Positions 43,213 to 59,152 of a DNA stretch of 64,000 nt are shown piece after piece. Source of the stretch: an uncultured Desulfobacter sp. GTDB taxonomy: Bacteria > Desulfobacterota > Desulfobacteria > Desulfobacterales > Desulfobacteraceae. The stretch is from assembly GCA_963665095.1 (NCBI GenBank), contig OY762069.1:352001-416000 (forward strand), given 5' to 3'. Both the position numbers and the translations under genes were made by a program. The notes below the pieces were generated by a model, which ran no database searches, was not told the origin of the DNA, and saw only the letters and a program-made list of their open reading frames with translations. The first letter of the stretch is position 1, and every line of letters starts with the position of its first letter.

Positions 43213-43338
43213 GTGTTTGGAGGAGAAGTTGCCCATATGCAAGGCGCAAGGGAACTTGCAACCGGAGCGTACTTCAGTACGCGAGGATTGTAAGTTCCCG
43301 CAGCAACACCGCAGATGGGTGACTTTTCCTCCAAACAC
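43213..43338. repeat. Palindromic element, copy 2 (inverted relative to copy 1)
   Basis: GTGTTTGGAGGAGAAGTTGCCCA...TGGGTGACTTTTCCTCCAAACAC; core CCGGAGCGTACTTCAGTACGCGAGGA; abuts the glmS TAG stop (CTAG). Confidence 0.9.
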
Positions 43339-46300
43339 TAGTTTAGTTTTTTTATTATGGCGTCCACTGCTTTTTCTGCCGTGGCCCCGAACAGGGTGTC
43401 AATATCCACAAGATTAAGATACTTATCATCCCAGGTGACATTCGTGCTTTCAAGAATCCAGTCCTTAAGGCGGGTATATTTACCGCCCAGTGCTTTGATC
43501 TTCTTCAGCAGCGAGACATCTTCGGAGGATTTAAACCCGATGTTCAAAGAAAGCAGAAATTCAATGCTGTTGGGTGTCGCCGGATTGGTGGAGAGTACCG
43601 GGATCACAAGGATATTCCGGTTGTCTTTCCGACCTTTGCCGATATAGACGTTTCCCTCTCTGACAATGATATTCTTGGTGCCTTTGAGCCGGTGGTCTGT
43701 CTCCACACGGGAACTTTCATTGGCAAGATTTCCGGTTTTTGATAGTACCTCAATCCGGGTGTCGGAAGTAACGCCGCCTAACAGGCTCAACCCGGAAATC
43801 CGGTAGAATACCGCTCCTTTTATTTCACAGACTATTTCCTGCAGGTTCTTAACAACTATAACATTGTTGTGAGTAAGCTGGGCAAGCTGGATGTCGTGTT
43901 CGGCCATGGAATCAAATAGAATGCCCTCAAAGCTTTCACTGATCCGGCTGGTGCCCACGGTAACTGTCTTGGCCTGATGTTTAATGGCATCCACGGGCCG
44001 GGCCATGTTGTTGATGGCCTGGTTCATGGAAGTAAAGAAGGCTGACAGCATATTGGCAGGTGTCCCTTTGACCCCGAAATCAATCTCAAAATCTGATACA
44101 GGCAGCCGGCCGGACAGATATTTGAGCAGCAGGGTGATGTTGGCAATGGCGTTGAGGCCTAACGCACCAGGGAATCCGTCCTCACGACGCTTTTCTGAGA
44201 ACTGGTTGTAGAAGCCTGCCACGCTTTCCCTGAATTTGTCTTCCAGGAGCACCTCGTAATCGTCATGGCCAATGCCTTTGAAGTCATCAATAATTCCCTG
44301 AAACTTCATTTTTGCGTCATACAGAAATTTGGAGCTGCTGTTTATGGCCAAAGCGGCATAATACCCCCAGATATGGCCCACCAGGGTGTTGAGGATAGGA
44401 GCAAAATGTTCCGGAATCTGAGGGATTTTAAACACGGCTCTGGCGTAGATGTCGAACCGGTCTTCCCCTTCTGTGGTGATGACAATGGGGCATGCTTTAT
44501 GGGCATGAAAGATCGCTGTATCTTTGATAATATCCCCTAATACACTTTCCCGGGTGCCGGCGGCACACACAATAATCAGCGGTTCACTTGACAGGTCAAT
44601 ATGTTTTTTGTCTTCCACAAAATCTGAAGAGATGGTCTTATAGCACAGTTCAGATAACTTGATCCGGATCTCATCGGCGGATGTTTTATTAAAACCCGAG
44701 CCCACTGTGGCCCAGTAGTTTTTGGTGACTGCCAGCTGGCTTGCACATGCTTTGATCTGTTCGCGTATGTCAAGAACGGCTGTCATTTTTGCCGGCAGGT
44801 CCATGAGGCAGCGGATCTGATCGGAGATGTACTCTTGGGTTCTGGCATTGAGCAGGGCAGCAAGATGCAGCCCTAATACAGCGCCTGCCGTGATCTGGGA
44901 GTAAAACGCCTTGGTGGAGGCAACGGACATCTCAATGTCTCTGCCGGAACTGGTGTACAATACCCCGTCCACCTTGAATGTGAGATCAGAGTCCCTGCGG
45001 TTGACAATGGCTATGGTTTTAGCGCCGCATGCCTTAATCATATCCACGGTGCGGTTGGTATCTGTGGTGGTTCCGGACTGGCTGATGGCAACCACTAATG
45101 TATCTTCCATGGCCGAGCAGTTGTCGCCCTCGGCACGAATACTGAACCCGGAGAGTTCCGATGCTTTCTGAGCACGGATATCCATGGCTTTTTCCCCGAG
45201 ATAATGGCGCAGGATATCTGCACATCCCTGGGCTGCGATTCCGGCTGTTCCCTGGCCGATGAAATAGATTTTTTTGATCTTCCCTGATCTTAAATTCTGT
45301 TCCAGCGTAAGGGGAATAATTGTCTGGTTCAGGCTTACGTTGAACAGGCCAGAACCAGGATTTTGTTTAAATTTATTTTCCAGGGTTTTTTCAACCGAAA
45401 GCGGAGATTCTGAGATCTCCTTAAGGAAATAGTGGTTGAACCCCTGGCGGTCGATATCCCGGGAGGTAATCTGGCTGGTCAGGACATCATCCTGAGTGAT
45501 CGTAATCGGCTGGCTGTCGTAATAAAAGGAGCGTATGCCTTCAACGCCTCCGGAACCGTTCTGGTCCAGGATGACAATCTGGCCCTGGTCTTCCCCGTTG
45601 AGTTTGATATAGCTCCGGGTCTCCTCCACCACACCGTAAAGTTCTGAAGCCGCAATATAGTGGTCCTTGGCAATACCCACAAAAATAGCCTGCCCACTGC
45701 CTTTCTGGGCCAGGAACAATTTGCCCGGGGCAAGATCCGTATGCATGGAAATGGCATGGGAACCCTGGAATTCATTAACTGCCAGGCGGAAAGCCTCTTC
45801 AATGGGAGCCCCTGATTTCAGATGATGCTCCACCTGGAGTGGAATCAGCTTGGTGTCTGTGGTGATCTGGGGGTGAATTTTATCATACCGGGCTTCATAC
45901 TCGGTTTTAAGCTCCAGGTAATTGTCGATATCCCCGTTCAGGCAAACATGGATAATCCCGTTAGGGGTGGCTTTTGTATCTGTGGGCGCATTATCCACCG
46001 GGTGGCAGTTGGCTTCCGTGATATCACCCACCGATGCCCAGCGGGTGTGGGCGGAGACGGAAGATGCTGTTAAAGTAAATTTTGCCAGGGTCTGGAGCAG
46101 GGAATCGTTTTTGATCTGTTCTCTGATAAAGGAGACATTATCACCCAGTGCCCCGACTTCAGCCGCAAATTTGTATACAAAACTGATGGTAACGCAGTCC
46201 GGTGCGGAACCGGAACTGCTGGTCTTATTAACGGAGATGGTGTTATTGGTCAGAATCTGACGATTGGTTCTTTCTTCCAGATCCTGGGCCAGTCCTTGTT

Positions 46301-47054
46301 TTTCAAGCTGTGCCCGATAATCAGAAAATTCGCTGGCCTCCAGGGTACACAACACCGAGATCCCGGCAGAATCCCTGCCCCTGACTTCAAGGCGGTCAAT
46401 ACTGTTGAGTACAGCATTGATCCGCTTAAACAGAATGAGGCCCCAGGGTGTTTTTTCCTTGTCCAGCCAAGGCGCCAGATTCTCTATAATTCCGATATTT
46501 TCAAGCACCTCTTTTTTCAGACACCAGAGGATATCTTTTACCAGTTCAATATGATCGGAGGCAATTTCCACCTCAGGCGTGGCCAGGCTGGAAGTAGCTG
46601 TTTTAAAGTCCCGGGTTTCCTGAGAGATGATGTTTTCAATATCTTCTGTTATCCGGGCAAGCTTGCGTGTTTTTTCTCTGTTGTAATAGAGGGAAGAAAA
46701 CACAGACTCCTGCTTTAGGTTCTGGGCATGATCAAACAGATCAGACAATAATTGTTTTCCACCCAGGTAATCGTCAGTCACCACCTGCCATCTCTGGTTG
46801 GTAAAGGGACCAAGACGGTTCTGGGCCAGTTTTTCAATGCCTAAGGAAAGGGCCTGAAGGTCGTCTTCGCAGGCCGGCCCCTTGAATGCCACCAGAGCAC
46901 AGATCCCGCAGCCCAGAGTACAGCCTGTATCCGGGAATAAAACAAGGGTATCAGGTTTTGCTGCTGAAAGTGGGATACCAAAATTCACATGGATCTGTCC
47001 CATGCGTTTCATGTGGGTTAGAATGCGTGCGGCGATATTTTTTTGGCCTCTCAT
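43338..47054 (-). CDS. glmS: Glutamine-fructose-6-phosphate aminotransferase-like protein, unusually long (1238 aa)
   Basis: CGI, LEVRGRDSAG, AHTRWAS, NCHP, NGDIDNY, TDT, ISQSGTTTDT, VASTKAF, IKLSELCY, AKTVTV. Confidence 0.88.
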   Translation of the reverse strand: MRGQKNIAARILTHMKRMGQIHVNFGIPLSAAKPDTLVLFPDTGCTLGCGICALVAFKGPACEDDLQALSLGIEKLAQNRLGPFTNQRWQVVTDDYLGGKQLLSDLFDHAQNLKQESVFSSLYYNREKTRKLARITEDIENIISQETRDFKTATSSLATPEVEIASDHIELVKDILWCLKKEVLENIGIIENLAPWLDKEKTPWGLILFKRINAVLNSIDRLEVRGRDSAGISVLCTLEASEFSDYRAQLEKQGLAQDLEERTNRQILTNNTISVNKTSSSGSAPDCVTISFVYKFAAEVGALGDNVSFIREQIKNDSLLQTLAKFTLTASSVSAHTRWASVGDITEANCHPVDNAPTDTKATPNGIIHVCLNGDIDNYLELKTEYEARYDKIHPQITTDTKLIPLQVEHHLKSGAPIEEAFRLAVNEFQGSHAISMHTDLAPGKLFLAQKGSGQAIFVGIAKDHYIAASELYGVVEETRSYIKLNGEDQGQIVILDQNGSGGVEGIRSFYYDSQPITITQDDVLTSQITSRDIDRQGFNHYFLKEISESPLSVEKTLENKFKQNPGSGLFNVSLNQTIIPLTLEQNLRSGKIKKIYFIGQGTAGIAAQGCADILRHYLGEKAMDIRAQKASELSGFSIRAEGDNCSAMEDTLVVAISQSGTTTDTNRTVDMIKACGAKTIAIVNRRDSDLTFKVDGVLYTSSGRDIEMSVASTKAFYSQITAGAVLGLHLAALLNARTQEYISDQIRCLMDLPAKMTAVLDIREQIKACASQLAVTKNYWATVGSGFNKTSADEIRIKLSELCYKTISSDFVEDKKHIDLSSEPLIIVCAAGTRESVLGDIIKDTAIFHAHKACPIVITTEGEDRFDIYARAVFKIPQIPEHFAPILNTLVGHIWGYYAALAINSSSKFLYDAKMKFQGIIDDFKGIGHDDYEVLLEDKFRESVAGFYNQFSEKRREDGFPGALGLNAIANITLLLKYLSGRLPVSDFEIDFGVKGTPANMLSAFFTSMNQAINNMARPVDAIKHQAKTVTVGTSRISESFEGILFDSMAEHDIQLAQLTHNNVIVVKNLQEIVCEIKGAVFYRISGLSLLGGVTSDTRIEVLSKTGNLANESSRVETDHRLKGTKNIIVREGNVYIGKGRKDNRNILVIPVLSTNPATPNSIEFLLSLNIGFKSSEDVSLLKKIKALGGKYTRLKDWILESTNVTWDDKYLNLVDIDTLFGATAEKAVDAIIKKLN

Positions 47055-52687: not shown

Positions 52688-53212
52688 TTATGAAAGCAGG
52701 TCGGGGATTTTTTCAACATTGTCCAAATCCACCTCTACGCCTGCATAGCGGCCGAGCAGATCTACTTTAATAATAACCCGTCCCTGACCCTTATGTTCAA
52801 AAAATTCTCCTTTCAGTCCGGCCATGGGACCTTCAAGAATCATGACCGGGTCCCCCTTTTTCAACTGGATAATGGCGCCTGTGATCAGATCCTGGTCAAC
52901 AGATGTCAAAAGTTTTAAGGATTCAATCTGCTGTTCGGGTACAGCCACCGGCCCCTGAGAATTCCCGATCAGTCTTACCGCCCCCACTGTTTTTAAAATG
53001 GGCAGCTGGTCTGCCGGCGTTTTTGTGGATTTGACAAATACATACCCTGGAAACAGCGGGGTTTCAATCATTAGTTTGCGGTCTTTGCGGCGGCTGGGTT
53101 TCCTGGTTTTAGGAAGAAATGCATCAATTTTTTTCATGCAGATGCGTGAATACACGGTCTGCTCAAAATTGCTCCGGGTTAACAGGGCAAACCACTGGGT
53201 AGTATTTTTCAT
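52688..53212 (-). CDS. NusG-paralogue transcription antiterminator (UpxY/RfaH/LoaP type)
   Basis: WFALLTRSNFE, PLFPGYVFV, KOW GDPVMILEGPMAGLKG; overlaps the lptD stop (ATGA). Confidence 0.88.
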   Translation of the reverse strand: MKNTTQWFALLTRSNFEQTVYSRICMKKIDAFLPKTRKPSRRKDRKLMIETPLFPGYVFVKSTKTPADQLPILKTVGAVRLIGNSQGPVAVPEQQIESLKLLTSVDQDLITGAIIQLKKGDPVMILEGPMAGLKGEFFEHKGQGRVIIKVDLLGRYAGVEVDLDNVEKIPDLLS

Positions 53213-55431
53213 TGGGTACCAAACTCTCCTATACCCTTTAAGGTTACCATAAACGTAAAGGACTTGTCGTCTGATTCTTTTTTATACCCTAAACGCAATG
53301 CCCAGCAGGGCCGGTTAAAGATAAAGCCTGCGCAGGTTTCAATGGTTGACTTGTCCTCTAAATCCTTTTCAAAAGAGTAATAGGCCTGCAGGGTATTTGA
53401 AAGCAGGTTGATATTAAATTTTGTGTACCAGGTGTGCAACGTATCCTCGGTGTACCGGTAGGCAGTGTAAATACTGTCCTGCCTTTTATCCCTGAGTGTG
53501 CCACCTAGCCAGAACCTGGTGAAATCCCGGGTGTTGGGGTCGAAGGCAACAGTGCCCTTAGCAGTCAGGTATCCGGAAGGGTTCAGTTCATATTTCAGCG
53601 TCAGATCCTGCCAGGGATCATCTTGGGCATTCTTTTTGTCCCTTTCATAGCGGATGTCATACTCCTGAAAAAGTTTGAGCCAGAGCAGCTCTTTATACAC
53701 GCTGGACGCTTCTTTTTTATCATTGAAAACTGTTCGTCTCGATGTGAACGTATGGGTTAATGACCAGGTGATGACATTTTTTTCTGAAATATCATCCAGG
53801 GAATCAAAGTAGGGCAGGTCTTCCTGGTCCACATCCGGGATGTAGTCATATTCCAGTTTGGGAACAATCTCGTGTTTTATTTTTTCAGCAAAATCCGTAT
53901 TCAGGGTAAAGACACGGTTTAAGGATATTGACAAATCCATGCCCAGCTCATACAGCCCCCGGGATCTGGTATCAGAATCATCCCCGTCATCATCACAGAA
54001 GTCGTCAGTATGCCAGAAGGTCCCCCTGATACCGGCATAGGGCTCAAAAAACAGTGATTTCCCCAGCTTGACCGGATAATAAAAGGTTGGGTGGATGTCC
54101 ATTCTCTGGCCATTCACCTTTGTGGCGGTGGTGTCCTGGCGGTAAAAAGATTTTAACTGCGTATTCATTTTGTAGTACAGCCCGGTCGGACCGATCTTTT
54201 GCCTTACACCGTCCAGCGTCAGGGATGGCAGGGTCTGCAGGGTGGTGTCATCGGCGTCGGTCTGCCGGGCCTTGACATTGTCATACCAGAGCGCCTGCAT
54301 ATTCAGGCTGTATGCACTCCAGTTCCTTGTGACAAGCAGGCTGTTTTTACGTGTATAATCGTTGTATTCATCTATATCCCGGCCGAACATTTTTGCAAAT
54401 GCCGCATCTGTTTCATCGTATCCGGTAAAACCGTCCTGGAAATCCAGCAGAAAATCCGCATCAGAGACATAATCAATATCGAGCTTGGCATTGAATCCAT
54501 AGCCTAAATTCTGGTCATGTTTCATCCGGATCCAGTACCTGTCCTGGTTGGTGCGGTCAGGCGTGGTGGCAAAACTGTAATCCTCATTTTCATTTGTGCC
54601 GTCTCCAATGGTGTCATCCTTAAGGTAATCAGCCATGATCATGCCGCGGGATTCCTCAGGGAGCATATACCTGTATTCACCGGAGAGCATAACGCCTCTG
54701 TCAGACATATAATAGCTGTAAAGGGTGGCATCCATACTGTCAGACAGGGCCAGAAACAGCGGCTGCTGATATTCAATACCTTTACTGTCGGAATTCCCGG
54801 CCATGGGCAGCAGCAGGCCTGTCTGGCGGGTGGTTTTGGCAGGAAAAATAAAGTAGGGCGAATAAAGCAGGGGCATTTTTTTTGCCCATAACGTGGCATG
54901 GCTGGTGCGGCCATATCCGTCAATGGTCACCTCAATGTCTTTTCCCGTGATCTTCCAGTCCGGCTGGTCTCCGCTGCAGGTGGTAATGGTACCTTCCACG
55001 GCATCATAGGTGAACTCACCGGTTTTGCGCAGTGTCTGGCCTGAAATATAGTAGTTGCCGTCCTGCAGGAAAATGGTGCCGTTGTGAATAATGCCGGTCT
55101 CCTTGGCCAGGTTGACCTGCATGGATTCACAGGTGATGGTGTCTTTCCCTGAAATAAACAGAACATGGCCTTTGGCAAAGGCTTCTTTCGTATCATCGGA
55201 AAATTCAACATAATCCGTTTCAATACGGGTCTGGCCCCCGGTGATCACTACCTCATCTTCGGCAATATAGCGCTTGCTTTTATTGTCGTAGCTGACCTGT
55301 CTGGCCTGGATATTCCAGGATACCTTTTGACTGGGTAGTGAGCCGGTGAAACACAGCGCCTGGCTGTGAAAATATAATAAAACAGCCAGGGCTGAAAACA
55401 CCTGGCACAGCGTTCTTTTCCATGAAACCAT
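53209..55431 (-). CDS. lptD: LPS-assembly protein LptD (OstA family)
   Basis: Signal peptide, OstA-like N-terminus, ITTC...PDWKI, PYFIFPAKTTRQTGLLLP, VSDADF, KHEIVP, CW, TLKGIG. Confidence 0.88.
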   Translation of the reverse strand: MVSWKRTLCQVFSALAVLLYFHSQALCFTGSLPSQKVSWNIQARQVSYDNKSKRYIAEDEVVITGGQTRIETDYVEFSDDTKEAFAKGHVLFISGKDTITCESMQVNLAKETGIIHNGTIFLQDGNYYISGQTLRKTGEFTYDAVEGTITTCSGDQPDWKITGKDIEVTIDGYGRTSHATLWAKKMPLLYSPYFIFPAKTTRQTGLLLPMAGNSDSKGIEYQQPLFLALSDSMDATLYSYYMSDRGVMLSGEYRYMLPEESRGMIMADYLKDDTIGDGTNENEDYSFATTPDRTNQDRYWIRMKHDQNLGYGFNAKLDIDYVSDADFLLDFQDGFTGYDETDAAFAKMFGRDIDEYNDYTRKNSLLVTRNWSAYSLNMQALWYDNVKARQTDADDTTLQTLPSLTLDGVRQKIGPTGLYYKMNTQLKSFYRQDTTATKVNGQRMDIHPTFYYPVKLGKSLFFEPYAGIRGTFWHTDDFCDDDGDDSDTRSRGLYELGMDLSISLNRVFTLNTDFAEKIKHEIVPKLEYDYIPDVDQEDLPYFDSLDDISEKNVITWSLTHTFTSRRTVFNDKKEASSVYKELLWLKLFQEYDIRYERDKKNAQDDPWQDLTLKYELNPSGYLTAKGTVAFDPNTRDFTRFWLGGTLRDKRQDSIYTAYRYTEDTLHTWYTKFNINLLSNTLQAYYSFEKDLEDKSTIETCAGFIFNRPCWALRLGYKKESDDKSFTFMVTLKGIGEFGTQ

Positions 55432-55612
55432 AAAGGGGATGAACGGTCCTGTTTAATAAATTGCACATCAATAAAAATTACTGTATAAAGCCATTTTATA
55501 CTTGAAAAGTCAAGGCGGCCGCTGAAATTAGCCCCTTAGCCGGATCCGGGTTGCCTGAACAAAAGATTCTGATGAGATATGGGCCCGGACAGCCGGTATA
55601 GAAAGGATAAAC

Positions 55613-57889
55613 ATGTTTGCCTCTGTCATTGATTCCATCGGCAATACCCCCCTTGTAAAAATCCAGACGATCAATCCGGAACCCGGTGTCACCATCCTGG
55701 CCAAACTTGAGTATATGAATCCGGGCGGTTCGATTAAAGACCGTGCGGCATTGTATATGATCAAGCAGGCGGAAGCCGATGGTGAGCTGACGCCGGAAAA
55801 AACCGTTATTGAAGCCACCTCCGGCAATACCGGTATCGGTCTTGCCCTGATCTGTGCGGTCAAGGGATATAAGCTGGCCCTGGCCATGGCGGAAAACGCC
55901 AGTGAAGAGCGTAAGAAAATTCTTAAGGCCCGGGGGGCAAAGATCATCCTCACCCCCAGACACCTGGGTTCGGACGGGGCCATTGAAGAGGCCTACCGGC
56001 TTGCCAGGGAATACCCGGATAAATATTTCCTACCGGATCAGTACAATAACCCGGCCAACTGGAAAGCCCACTACCATACCACCGGCCCTGAGATCATGGC
56101 CCAGACCGAAGGGAATGTGGATGCCGTGGTGGCCACTGTGGGTACTTCAGGCACGCTGATGGGGCTTTGCCGATATTTTAAGGACCAGGGACATCATGCC
56201 CGGGTGATCTGTGCCGAGCCATATCTCGGGCACGGTATTCAGGGCCTTAAAAATATGAAGGAATCCTATACCCCGGAAATTTTTGATAAAAGCCTTCTGG
56301 GTGACAGTGTTCACATAGATGATGCCACAGCCTTTGAAACCGCACGGCTTTTGGCCAAAAAAGAGGGCCTGTTTGTGGGCATGAGTTCCGGCGCTGCCAT
56401 GGCAGTGGCCCTTGACCAGGCCAAGCGTCTTCAAAAAGGCATCATTGTGGTTATTTTTCCCGATTCTGGTGAGCGGTATCTTTCCACAGACCTTTTCAGC
56501 GTAAAAAAGACCGTGAACCTGAATGTCTACAATTCGTTGTCCCAGAAAAAAGAGGCGTTTACGCCCAAGGGGGACAAGGATGTGGGTATCTATACCTGCG
56601 GGCCCACAGTTCACCGGCGGCTTGATATCGGCCATTTCCGGCGCCATGCGTTTACGGATCTGTTGATTCGAAGTCTTGAGTACCAGGATGTAAAGGTCAA
56701 ACATATTGTCAATATCACGGACTATGACGATAAGACCATTGACGGGGCAAGGGAGGCAGGTATCAGTCCCGGGGCCTTTACCCAGCCCTTCATCGACGCG
56801 TTCCTGGCAGATCTGGCACGGCTTGGCATGCGTCCCGCCCAGGCCTATGCCAAAGTATCTGATCATTTTACTGAAATGACCGATCTTACAAGAACGCTTC
56901 TGGCCAGGGGTCATGCCTATGAAAAGCTGCATTCGGTTTATTTTGACCTGGCAAGTTTAAGTGATTACGGCCGGCTCTCCCGGGTGGATGTCAATAAGAT
57001 CCGCATCGGAGCCACAGTGGATCTGGATGAATATGAAAAACAGAACCCAAGGGATTTTACCCTGCTCAAACGGGTAAAGCTGTCCGAGCTGAAACAGGGG
57101 GTGGGCATTAAGACGGAGTGGGGAAATGTGCGGCCCTCCCTTCACCTGCAGTGCGCTGCCATTGCTACGGCGTTTCTGGGTGCGCAGTTTGATATCCACA
57201 CCGGTTCCAGGGAGCTGATGTTTCCCCACCATGAGAACGAGATTGCCATTGCCAGAGCTGCAGGCGGCTCCTTTGCCAGGGTGTGGATGCACTGTGCGCC
57301 GGTGTATTATGACGGGTCTCTGGATGCAGAAACCCTTGAGGATTTAACCCTTGACCGTATGGCTCAGATGGGTTGGGATGAGAAAACCATCCGCTTCTGG
57401 CTCTTGTCCGCCCATTACAGAAAAACACTGATCCTGTCAAAAAAGAGCCTGGATGATGCCGGAACTGTACTTGCCCGGATCAACCGGTGTATAGAGTCCC
57501 TTGATGCGGCATCCGGACACTCCAGTGAAGAGGATATTCAGCAGATTACCTATGATATCCGCCAGGGTATGGTGTCGGCCATGGCAGATGATTTGAAAGT
57601 GCCGGTTCTGGTATCAGGCCTTTTATCCTGTGTAAAGCGGATCAACCGCCTGATCAGTGCAGGGGACCTTGGGCCGGCAGGTGCCGGGCGTCTGCGTGAC
57701 TGCTTCAGGGATGTGGATACAGTGCTCAATGTGTTTGATTTCAGTCAAAAGAAAGCGTATTCCGATCAGGCTGCTGCACTCATTGCCCAGCGGGAAGCGG
57801 CCCGGCAGAAAAAAGATTTTGAGACAGCGGACAGAATCCGGAAACAGCTGGATGAGATGGGCATTCCGGTTCATGATAAAAAGGTGTGA
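55613..57889 (+). CDS. Cysteine synthase (CysK/CysM) fused to a cysteinyl-tRNA synthetase-like domain
   Basis: Aa 1-~300: IGNTPLV, NPGGSIKDR (PLP Lys), EATSGNTG, GTSGT, DSGERYLST. Aa ~303-758: YNSLS, YTCGPTV, NITDYDDK, VYFD, DF, HLQC, DIH...FPHHENE, AR..KDF..ADRIR. Confidence 0.93.
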   Translation: MFASVIDSIGNTPLVKIQTINPEPGVTILAKLEYMNPGGSIKDRAALYMIKQAEADGELTPEKTVIEATSGNTGIGLALICAVKGYKLALAMAENASEERKKILKARGAKIILTPRHLGSDGAIEEAYRLAREYPDKYFLPDQYNNPANWKAHYHTTGPEIMAQTEGNVDAVVATVGTSGTLMGLCRYFKDQGHHARVICAEPYLGHGIQGLKNMKESYTPEIFDKSLLGDSVHIDDATAFETARLLAKKEGLFVGMSSGAAMAVALDQAKRLQKGIIVVIFPDSGERYLSTDLFSVKKTVNLNVYNSLSQKKEAFTPKGDKDVGIYTCGPTVHRRLDIGHFRRHAFTDLLIRSLEYQDVKVKHIVNITDYDDKTIDGAREAGISPGAFTQPFIDAFLADLARLGMRPAQAYAKVSDHFTEMTDLTRTLLARGHAYEKLHSVYFDLASLSDYGRLSRVDVNKIRIGATVDLDEYEKQNPRDFTLLKRVKLSELKQGVGIKTEWGNVRPSLHLQCAAIATAFLGAQFDIHTGSRELMFPHHENEIAIARAAGGSFARVWMHCAPVYYDGSLDAETLEDLTLDRMAQMGWDEKTIRFWLLSAHYRKTLILSKKSLDDAGTVLARINRCIESLDAASGHSSEEDIQQITYDIRQGMVSAMADDLKVPVLVSGLLSCVKRINRLISAGDLGPAGAGRLRDCFRDVDTVLNVFDFSQKKAYSDQAAALIAQREAARQKKDFETADRIRKQLDEMGIPVHDKKV

Positions 57890-57895
57890 GTTGAT

Positions 57896-58849
57896 ATGAA
57901 TAATTTATATTTTTTCCCGTTTACATTTATAAATGACCGTCAGGCACAGGCAATGACCCTGTTTTTTGACCGCTTCAGTATTCTGGATATTCATCCGGGA
58001 GCGCCTTTGCCCGGCCCCATGGCCAGCCTTGAGAATCAGGGCATTTTGTCGCGGGTGCCTGTGGACCAGGATAAGCTTTCTGTTGCAGAATTAAAGGCGC
58101 GTGACTGGCTGGACTGGGCCGCTGTAAACCGGGGCAATGAAAAAAATTTACGGGCCATGATTCGTGAGACGGCTTTTTTGACGGATGACAGTGGTGTAGC
58201 GGCCATCAAGTCCGGCATCCGTAAAGGGATTGGGGGAAGCGGCCAGAATTTTGCATCCGGGCCCACAGTGGAGCCGCCACTTGTCTTTTTAAAACTTGCG
58301 GACATCTACGATCGTGAGCATCAGGAGATTCAAAACGCCCTGGATGCCCTGGACGCTGAAAATGCTGCCCTTTTTGCCGAATTAAAAGGTGAAGCCGTTC
58401 TTGCGGCTCCCGACAGGGTTCCGGGAGATGATGATCCCGGTCGTGCCATGACGCTGAAAAGAATTCAGGCCTGGTGGTCGGTTGCCTTTGATGCAGGGCT
58501 TTTGAACCCTGATGCAACCCCGGTCTTGGTCACTGCCAGCCGTGCGGTTATGGATGAATTTTGTGCCAGTGCCGGCAAGGCGATAAATACGCTTGACATT
58601 GAATCCATAAAAGTGCATCACAATGATTGCGAGCTGACAGAACAGCGGCATCTGGAGATAAACAGAATCCTTGAGCAGATGGCAAAAGGAGTGGCCGTTG
58701 ATCCGGAAAAGGCACGTCTGGACAGTGTTGGTAACACCCCGGTCACCGGTCGGATTCAGCTTCGTTTTTTTTCCGGAGATAATGTAGCCCTAAAAGAAAA
58801 AAATCCAGGCGGACAGGTTGGTGTATGCCTGGTAGAATTAAACTCATAA
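57896..58849 (+). CDS. Hypothetical protein
   Basis: 317-aa ORF starting 6 nt after the fusion gene; no recognised motif. Confidence 0.75.
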   Translation: MNNLYFFPFTFINDRQAQAMTLFFDRFSILDIHPGAPLPGPMASLENQGILSRVPVDQDKLSVAELKARDWLDWAAVNRGNEKNLRAMIRETAFLTDDSGVAAIKSGIRKGIGGSGQNFASGPTVEPPLVFLKLADIYDREHQEIQNALDALDAENAALFAELKGEAVLAAPDRVPGDDDPGRAMTLKRIQAWWSVAFDAGLLNPDATPVLVTASRAVMDEFCASAGKAINTLDIESIKVHHNDCELTEQRHLEINRILEQMAKGVAVDPEKARLDSVGNTPVTGRIQLRFFSGDNVALKEKNPGGQVGVCLVELNS

Positions 58850-58963: not shown

Positions 58964-59152
58964 ATGGCATTTACCCCAGTAGTTGATCAGTCCAAATGTG
59001 TAGGTTGCGAAGAGTGCGTTGATGTTTGCCCCGCAGAAGTATTTGAAATGGAAGACGGCAAATCCAACCCCGTTAATGCTGAAGAATGCATGGGCTGCGA
59101 AAGCTGTGTAGAAGTTTGTGAAGAAGACGCCATCACAATAGAAGAAGACTAA
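58964..59152 (+). CDS. 2[4Fe-4S] ferredoxin
   Basis: CVGCEECVDVCP and CMGCESCVEVC; acidic; strong AAGGAGG RBS. Confidence 0.95.
   Translation: MAFTPVVDQSKCVGCEECVDVCPAEVFEMEDGKSNPVNAEECMGCESCVEVCEEDAITIEED

Follow-up and report, generated by a model that had tools for sequence, protein, structure and literature searches.

What would a cysteine synthase gain from carrying, as its C-terminal half, a cysteinyl-tRNA synthetase (CysRS) that has lost its ATP-binding motifs? The question is raised by a gene in the stretch of DNA analysed here, a 64,000-nucleotide window from an uncultured Desulfobacter sp., in which both proteins are encoded as one chain of 758 residues. The best answer we can offer, in which we place about even confidence, is that the CysRS-like half would serve as an allosteric module that binds tRNA-Cys and regulates the committed step in cysteine biosynthesis. 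An earlier first-pass annotation, made from the sequence without database searches, had described an intact synthase in frame with a full-length CysRS-like region, and this description holds, since a single open reading frame (ORF) contains the Pfam domains PALP (aa 7-284), tRNA-synt_1e (317-616) and CysS_C (717-757), all above their cut-offs. Three sets of sequences underlie the counts given below: 120 near homologues; a diverse set of 58, composed of the query and 57 loci fetched from the phylum (the pseudo forms); and 109 active CysRSs for comparison, which were picked by their HIGH and KMSK motifs, so that those columns are 100% conserved by construction. Two stand-alone CysRSs (L066, L074) and a split gene (L073) were left out before the diverse set was compiled, and residue numbers were matched to E. 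coli CysRS on a phmmer alignment. The features of the gene are as follows.

55613..57889 (+): whole fusion gene, 758 aa (P0001), a single uninterrupted ORF
55613..56500 (+): CysM-type cysteine synthase domain dependent on pyridoxal phosphate (PLP), aa 1-296; TIGR01136 above cut-off, PDB matches 2BHS and 2JC3
56519..57886 (+): CysRS-like domain, aa 303-758, a complete fold including the anticodon-binding domain (phmmer, Foldseek)
56597..56644 (+): Zn ligand C329 and degenerate HIGH (DIGH), then a family-specific RR; R344 in 57/58 pseudo forms against 3/109 active CysRSs
57011..57100 (+): remodelled connective-peptide segment, aa 467-496; W485 lost, and T468, R487, L493, K494 and G496 newly fixed
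57128..57241 (+): Zn/cysteine pocket; C514, H539 and E543 retained, G506 and W510 altered
57290..57337 (+): lost KMSKS loop position; KM[SA]K in 0/58 diverse members, KM[SA] in 0/120 near homologues
57791..57877 (+): anticodon-reading residues R727, R731, F736, D740, R743 and D755, by alignment to E. coli CysRS

An AAGGA element lies ahead of the ORF at 55603-55607, and promoter and terminator scans around the gene gave matches at chance level only. The fusion passes the NCBIfam cysKM model TIGR01136 (358.3 bits, cut-off 344.15) and the model of the anticodon-binding domain PF23493 (34.4 bits, cut-off 23), and it stays below the cut-offs of the cysM model TIGR01138 (352 against 394 bits) and the cysS model TIGR00435 (303.6 against 340 bits). 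Its CysRS-like domain aligns end to end with CysRSs of known structure (phmmer, E 2e-73 for 8QHP and 1e-67 for 1LI5). An AlphaFold2 model built from a 67-sequence alignment has a mean predicted local distance difference test score of 90.9 and a predicted template modelling score (pTM) of 0.80, the latter of which suggests a fixed packing of the two modelled domains. The top Foldseek match of this model is 1U0B, the E. coli CysRS-tRNA complex, and the closest solved relatives of the synthase domain are CysM from E. coli and Salmonella (2BHS, 2JC3), with a root-mean-square deviation of 1.5 A to 2BHS. Desulfobacter proteins with 81-83% identity are the closest named relatives of the whole fusion, and its relatives are annotated at source as 'cysteine--tRNA ligase' or 'cysteine synthase'. 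The fusion is not an assembly artefact, because 57 of the 60 phylum loci that were fetched hold both domains in one frame (of the others, two are stand-alone CysRSs and one is split); the CysRS-like domain is full length in 56 of these 57.

The first-pass annotation had listed DIGH (aa 338-341), the absence of KMSKS (at aa 560-575), VRPSLHLQC, DFTLLK, HTGS, the Zn ligands and a C-terminal anticodon motif, and each of these readings is right. Its view of them as decay stands for the ATP motifs and was overstated for two others. In DFTLLK only the change from W to L is a loss, because the active CysRS of the host reads DFTLWK, and in HTGS only the change from G to S is real, because HTGG is normal in the HIGN-type CysRSs that are the source of the domain. 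HxG[HN] occurs in none of the 120 near homologues and in five of the 58 diverse members; at the KMSKS position, the diverse members show KMSR in 13 cases and the second lysine in one. In 120/120 near homologues, L or V takes the place of W510 (E. coli W205) in the GWH motif, and W485, G506 and Q546 are retained in 0/58 diverse members as against at least 98% of the 109 active CysRSs (109/109 for W485 itself). Column by column, both groups conserve 38 positions; in the fusion, constraint is relaxed at 32 and nine positions are newly fixed, of which three are basic. In addition to R344, the gained residues include T468 (52/58 pseudo forms, 0/109 active CysRSs), R487 (58/58, 6/109), K494 (58/58, 1/109) and G496 (58/58, 4/109). 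Most gained residues fall in the connective-peptide domain, which has been tied to acceptor-stem recognition (PMC5389517; this and all other articles given by PMC number are cited for the portions of them that were available, and statements drawn from them extend as far as those portions).

The Zn ligands of the fusion are C329, C514, H539 and E543. All four are present in 120/120 near homologues, as are T369, H511 and H540, and in 32/58 diverse members; the three core ligands are present in 46/58, that is, the Zn site is lost in 12/58. Presumably H234 and E238 are the remaining Zn ligands of canonical CysRS. Its C28 and C209 are described as such (PMC5660078). The initial claim that the Zn/Cys site is kept is thus correct for the host lineage and does not extend to the whole family, in which the site has been lost four times on a tree of the synthase domain. 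The six anticodon-reading residues, which correspond to E. coli R423, R427, W432, D436, R439 and D451, are present in 120/120 near homologues and 57/58 diverse members, the lone miss being the truncated gene L067. We take E. coli R423 and D451 to be anticodon contacts. R427, W432, D436 and R439 have been targeted as anticodon contact sites (PMC13449415). Surface positions beside these residues vary and the anticodon set does not. Furthermore, on a tree of the synthase domain only, the Zn site changes four times (at least two of them forced by starred branches), the remnant of KMS seven times and the first His nine times, as against no change of the anticodon set in full-length members. Predicted tRNA-Cys binding, and not the Zn/Cys site, therefore appears to be the invariant of the family. 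Of the two functions offered at first pass, a cysteine and/or tRNA-Cys sensor, tRNA-Cys binding is better supported than cysteine sensing because the anticodon residues are kept in 57/58 members and the Zn ligands in 46/58; sensing and regulation themselves are the conjectural part of that proposal.

The CysRS-like domain is remodelled and is maintained by purifying selection; it is not decaying. Over 10 congener pairs, the synthase has a ratio of nonsynonymous to synonymous substitution rates (dN/dS) of 0.05-0.11 and the CysRS-like domain, with a pace of change about 1.5-2 times faster, one of 0.10-0.15; the canonical cysS of the same five genomes has 0.08-0.12. The synthase residues K42 (the PLP lysine), S70 and N72 (TSGN loop) and K213 are each present in 120/120 near homologues. 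A separate canonical cysS, a much stronger match in a PF01406 search, lies about 134 kb from the fusion (G000:C1:273910) with HIGH, GRPGWHIEC and KMSKS intact, and canonical copies with intact motifs are also present in 4/4 congeners. The first-pass notion of a pseudo-synthetase under selection beside a canonical cysS is borne out, and neither of the outcomes that were to count against it was found: the fusion is not the only CysRS of its genome, and the pattern of loss and retention is conserved among orthologues instead of random.

The fusion is widespread. A fusion-type match was found in at least 117 of 301 genomes of the phylum, a lower bound that was judged by E-value and open-frame length among 150 places listed, and a second CysRS-like match accompanies it in 116 of these 117. 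In Desulfobacteraceae, the family of the host (whose genome is 97% complete), 35 of 41 genomes encode the fusion. Unusual arrangements were also seen. Of the three CysRS-like genes in one genome, G267 (L054, L066, L200), one scores strongly as a canonical copy, one is a stand-alone CysRS of the HIGN type and one is the pseudo fusion. Another genome, G339, has a second, divergent fusion copy (L288:1142-4977), whose first 59 residues are encoded in a separate frame some 1.5 kb upstream, and at L043:884-4948 a 1354-aa frame ends with the fusion, ahead of which it has about 560 additional N-terminal residues.

Based on the content of the host genome, the synthase probably uses O-phosphoserine, because no serine acetyltransferase (SAT) or CysK was found in the host and 58 other genomes. 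The fusion is the only cysteine synthase among nine PALP matches in the host genome, in which we found no CysE-like gene (best 39 bits, cut-off 211), no MetX, and no SepRS or SepCysS above cut-off (best 31 against 381 and 32 against 365 bits); serC and serA are adjacent, both above cut-off. Across the phylum sample, cysE is above cut-off in 3/117 fusion genomes and 68/184 others, any SAT-like gene is present in 58/117 and 143/184, and neither SAT nor CysK was found in 59/117 (the host included) and 29/184, after removal of five borderline cysK matches that are probably the fusion's own domain. Strict mutual exclusion of fusion and SAT is rejected by the 58 fusion genomes that carry a SAT-like gene. 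The six Desulfobacteraceae genomes that lack the fusion all have SAT and CysK, and the idea that their short synthases are fission products was rejected, as these are CysK-type and lie outside the clade. K213, invariant in the 67-sequence alignment, aligns with R210 of E. coli CysM and with the arginine of actinobacterial CysM, a position linked to O-phosphoserine selection and thiosulfate binding (PMC3805590; PMC9547175). The host has one tRNA-Cys(GCA) and one tRNA-Sec gene; no tRNA gene was found in the 64-kb window.

Where did the fusion come from? All trees were inferred in quick runs under LG+G4, with no mixture model. In a tree of 71 rows the pseudo forms make up one group (Shimodaira-Hasegawa-like approximate likelihood ratio test, 91) nested in the HIGN-type CysRSs, and duplication of the host's own HIGH-type cysS is rejected as their origin (approximately unbiased test, p-AU 0.009). 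A search of 50%-identity representatives also recovered a 768-aa synthase-CysRS fusion with intact motifs, P0136, for which no description was found in the literature searched. Its group (P0136, P0272-P0288; L117:3920-6298) comprises 18 clusters, five of which are named Nanoarchaeota, Nanobdellota or Woesearchaeota (DPANN), and H[ILV]G[HN], KM[SA]K and LWK are present in 18/18 and the gained motif in none, as against KM[SA]K in 0/102 and the gained motif in 102/102 of the next 102 matches. In the small, probably incomplete genome G340 the intact fusion is the only CysRS match. In 6/10 stand-alone loci, a synthase of the same class is followed directly by an intact cysS. The CysRS tree is compatible with a single origin of both fusions (p-AU 0.75), which is rejected by the synthase tree (p-AU 0.023); on the latter, stand-alone synthases of DPANN archaea and candidate phyla radiation (CPR) bacteria are nearer to the pseudo clade than the synthases of the intact fusions are; two separate fusion events are slightly favoured on these trees. 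A metagenome scan for the gene surroundings of stand-alone pseudo forms covered 80 loci and contained one pseudo-type locus, which was a full fusion.

Other architectures turned up in the same searches. P0254 (711 aa) joins a serine acetyltransferase-like N-terminus to a CysRS with intact motifs, and in P0188 (858 aa) a single chain comprises two CysRS-like units, of which the first is partial and carries an altered KMSKS. Contigs L121-L124 and L128, labelled Bdellovibrionales, Bathyarchaeia and Moranbacteria, have near-identical CysRS motifs and are possibly mis-binned CPR contigs; L123 and L124 have neighbour genes in common.

How, then, might the two halves work together? We propose that a CysM-type synthase would make cysteine from O-phosphoserine and sulfide or thiosulfate, without serine acetyltransferase, and that a catalytically dead CysRS paralog would still bind tRNA-Cys via its anticodon, read the charging state of the tRNA and switch the synthase allosterically. 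In lineages that keep the Zn pocket, the host among them, the module may perhaps sense free cysteine as well. CysE is the usual cysteine-inhibited step (PMC9547175), and with none found in the host the synthase would be the committed step and need a control of its own; the module would supply the end-product control that CysE normally gives. What the sequence itself shows is that the synthase residues are intact, that the ATP motifs are lost and the anticodon residues kept, that selection is purifying and that a canonical cysS exists separately; to this, O-phosphoserine use, tRNA binding, allostery and its direction are added as what we infer. We favor this hypothesis because tRNA-Cys recognition is kept in full-length members and basic residues have been gained in the acceptor-end domain. 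A narrower version is more doubtful and is put forward tentatively: the activity of a prokaryotic biosynthetic enzyme might depend directly on whether its own cognate tRNA is charged, uncharged tRNA-Cys being bound via the anticodon and an acceptor-end site that is remodelled and more basic, and turning on the CysE-independent synthase. This would amount to GCN2-like sensing inside the committed enzyme, independent of the ribosome, of riboswitches and of transcription factors, and if true it would place direct tRNA gating in about 40% of the sampled genomes of the phylum.

Conservation of the anticodon residues would equally fit a tether or scaffold without allostery, in which the dead domain holds tRNA-Cys or docks canonical CysRS by the synthase and passes new cysteine on for charging. 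We regard this as unlikely, though it deserves to be taken seriously: the same synthase class recurs with CysRS, fused to an intact one in the 18 clusters and adjoining intact cysS in six of the ten stand-alone loci described above, and the solved CysRS 8QHP is titled a homodimer. However, a dead site holding tRNA would be in competition with charging; the fusion and the canonical cysS, which is of another clade, are about 134 kb apart; and a tether leaves unexplained why the Zn pocket is retained in 120/120 near homologues. This retention, together with that of T369, H511 and H540, is what speaks for a sensor like HisZ, in which the Zn-thiolate pocket would bind free cysteine and inhibit the synthase, with tRNA contacts being secondary. 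HisZ itself is a precedent (PMC9437257), and CysE, the usual feedback point (PMC9547175), was not found in the host genome. Yet the Zn site is lost in 12/58 members and four times on the tree (at least two of them forced by starred branches), W510 is lost in the host lineage and no full-length member examined has lost the anticodon residues, and we consider such a sensor less probable than the tether.

The first-pass annotation had also suggested tRNA-linked chemistry, in which an aminoacyl-tRNA-Cys (seryl-, phosphoseryl- or cysteinyl-) would be presented to the PLP site for tRNA-dependent cysteine synthesis, editing or sulfur transfer. This found little support and seems improbable to us. Fixed tRNA-reading residues, a remodelled acceptor-end domain, the 59/117 carriers in which SAT-like genes were not found and the joint retention or loss of both domains within Desulfobacteraceae would all agree with it; against it, SepRS and SepCysS are not above cut-off in the host genome, there is one ordinary tRNA-Cys(GCA), and the same synthase class stands alone elsewhere. 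Moreover, the TSGN loop, which we take to bind a free carboxylate, is intact in 120/120. A plain channelling fusion, with a still-active non-canonical ligase or persulfide synthase, is very improbable. An intact fusion does exist in DPANN archaea (motifs in 18/18; the only CysRS match in G340) and some bacterial members retain HLG and KKMSR (KMSR in 13/58), but the query has neither motif and is accompanied by a canonical cysS. The KIIK and KMSK lysines of CysRS that have been tied to persulfide synthesis (PMC5660078) are three-quarters gone in the query, which reads KTID and has no KMSK. Lastly, a neutrally decaying relic would fit the repeated erosion of the ATP and Zn remnants and the pace of change of the domain, about 1.5-2 times faster than that of the synthase. 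This reading is largely refuted by a dN/dS near that of canonical cysS, the 38 columns conserved in both groups, the nine newly fixed and the full length of the domain in 56/57 fusions, and we give it hardly any credence.

The hypothesis of a tRNA-Cys-binding allosteric module has its own difficulties. Both tRNA binding and regulation by the module are predictions from sequence. Stand-alone synthases of the same GLKN class, without a CysRS-like module, occur in DPANN and CPR genomes, and therefore the module is not needed for catalysis in general; conversely, stand-alone pseudo-CysRSs of 460-484 aa with the gained motif have no synthase domain (P0128, P0130, P0133). The anticodon domain is the least constrained overall (dN/dS 0.17-0.40 over the last 43 codons), with the contact residues alone fixed. 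The pTM values of 0.80 for the fusion and 0.57 for the intact archaeal fusion are confounded by alignment depth (67 against 18 sequences). SAT and CysK are both present in 56/117 fusion genomes and in most Desulfobacteraceae, and therefore the fusion is not always the sole route to cysteine; the genomes in the counts of fusion and SAT are, moreover, related and not independent. Finally, the intact motifs of the second CysRS-like match are confirmed in five fusion genomes, and G150 (95% complete, 210 contigs) shows the fusion as its only CysRS match.

One neighbouring gene follows the fusion closely.

57896..58849 (+): downstream 317-aa protein, starting 6 bp after the fusion stop

This protein has no Pfam or NCBIfam match, and its Atlas leads are at 0.80 or lower. 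A homologue lies beside the fusion in 26/29 Desulfobacteraceae loci and 6/60 phylum loci. The gene is thus a syntenic neighbour mostly within the order Desulfobacterales and not a family-wide partner; the latter count rejects it as an obligate partner of the fusion. Behind it, at 58964-59152 (+), is a 62-aa ferredoxin with two Cys-rich motifs, with homologues of about 85-90% identity behind the 317-aa gene in L020, L289 and L290. Divergent from the fusion is an LptD-like gene at 53209-55431 (-), which is below cut-off (NCBIfam E 3.5e-41) and syntenic in L019, L020 and L290. Farther away, a 1238-aa ORF at 43338-47054 (-) is GlmS-like by eye, roughly double the usual length and interspersed with long additional segments.

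The fusion makes up a large family of synthetase paralogs in sulfate reducers and syntrophs that passes under the names of an ordinary 'cysteine--tRNA ligase' or 'cysteine synthase'. It would be a candidate answer to the question of how these sulfide-rich cells make and control cysteine in genomes that yielded no serine acetyltransferase. For the idea of a sensor, the intact archaeal fusion and naturally Zn-less members such as L061 would serve as ready-made controls. No description of the pseudo fusion was found in the literature searched, with most subscription journals outside its reach.

Among known systems, canonical CysRS of the HIGN-type branch (TIGR00435; 1LI5/1U0B; 8QHP) has in common with the fusion the whole fold, the Zn ligands of the host lineage and the anticodon residues. 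The fusion differs in its lost HIGH, KMSKS, W485, G506, W510 and Q546, its new basic residues, its attached synthase, its score below the TIGR00435 cut-off and the presence of a separate canonical copy. With CysM and the O-phosphoserine sulfhydrylases (2BHS; actinobacterial CysM) the synthase shares the PLP lysine, the TSGN loop and a basic residue at the R210 position, but it is below the TIGR01138 cut-off and belongs to a GLKN subfamily of its own, in which the closest stand-alone proteins with a name come from DPANN archaea and CPR bacteria. The intact Nanobdellota/Woesearchaeota fusion has the same domain order, length, synthase class and HIGN-type CysRS, and differs in that its catalytic motifs are intact in 18/18 and the gained motif is absent. 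CysRS*, which is coupled to selC*/selB*, is, like the fusion, a CysRS paralog, and is found in the same order, Desulfobacterales; it lacks the anticodon domain, which the fusion keeps, and it is proposed to charge selC* tRNA (PMC5389517). Judged by its motifs, the fusion shows the opposite pattern, with catalysis apparently lost and tRNA reading kept. MshC is another CysRS paralog, an ATP-dependent ligase, and neither it nor CysRS* is described as fused to a synthase. In the HisRS-like domain of GCN2 we assume a dead synthetase module that is proposed to read tRNA charging and to control a linked catalytic domain, as we propose for the fusion; GCN2 differs, we presume, in being eukaryotic, class II, a kinase and not specific to one tRNA. 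HisZ, the HisRS paralog that regulates HisG (PMC9437257), has in common with the fusion, which is assigned by sequence only, that a non-adenylating synthetase paralog is attached to the biosynthesis of the cognate amino acid. As far as it is described there, HisZ is a class II, separate subunit and an amino-acid sensor, whereas the fusion is class I, fused and has kept its anticodon-reading domain. By analogy, the fusion would most resemble HisZ or the sensor domain of GCN2, while belonging to neither.

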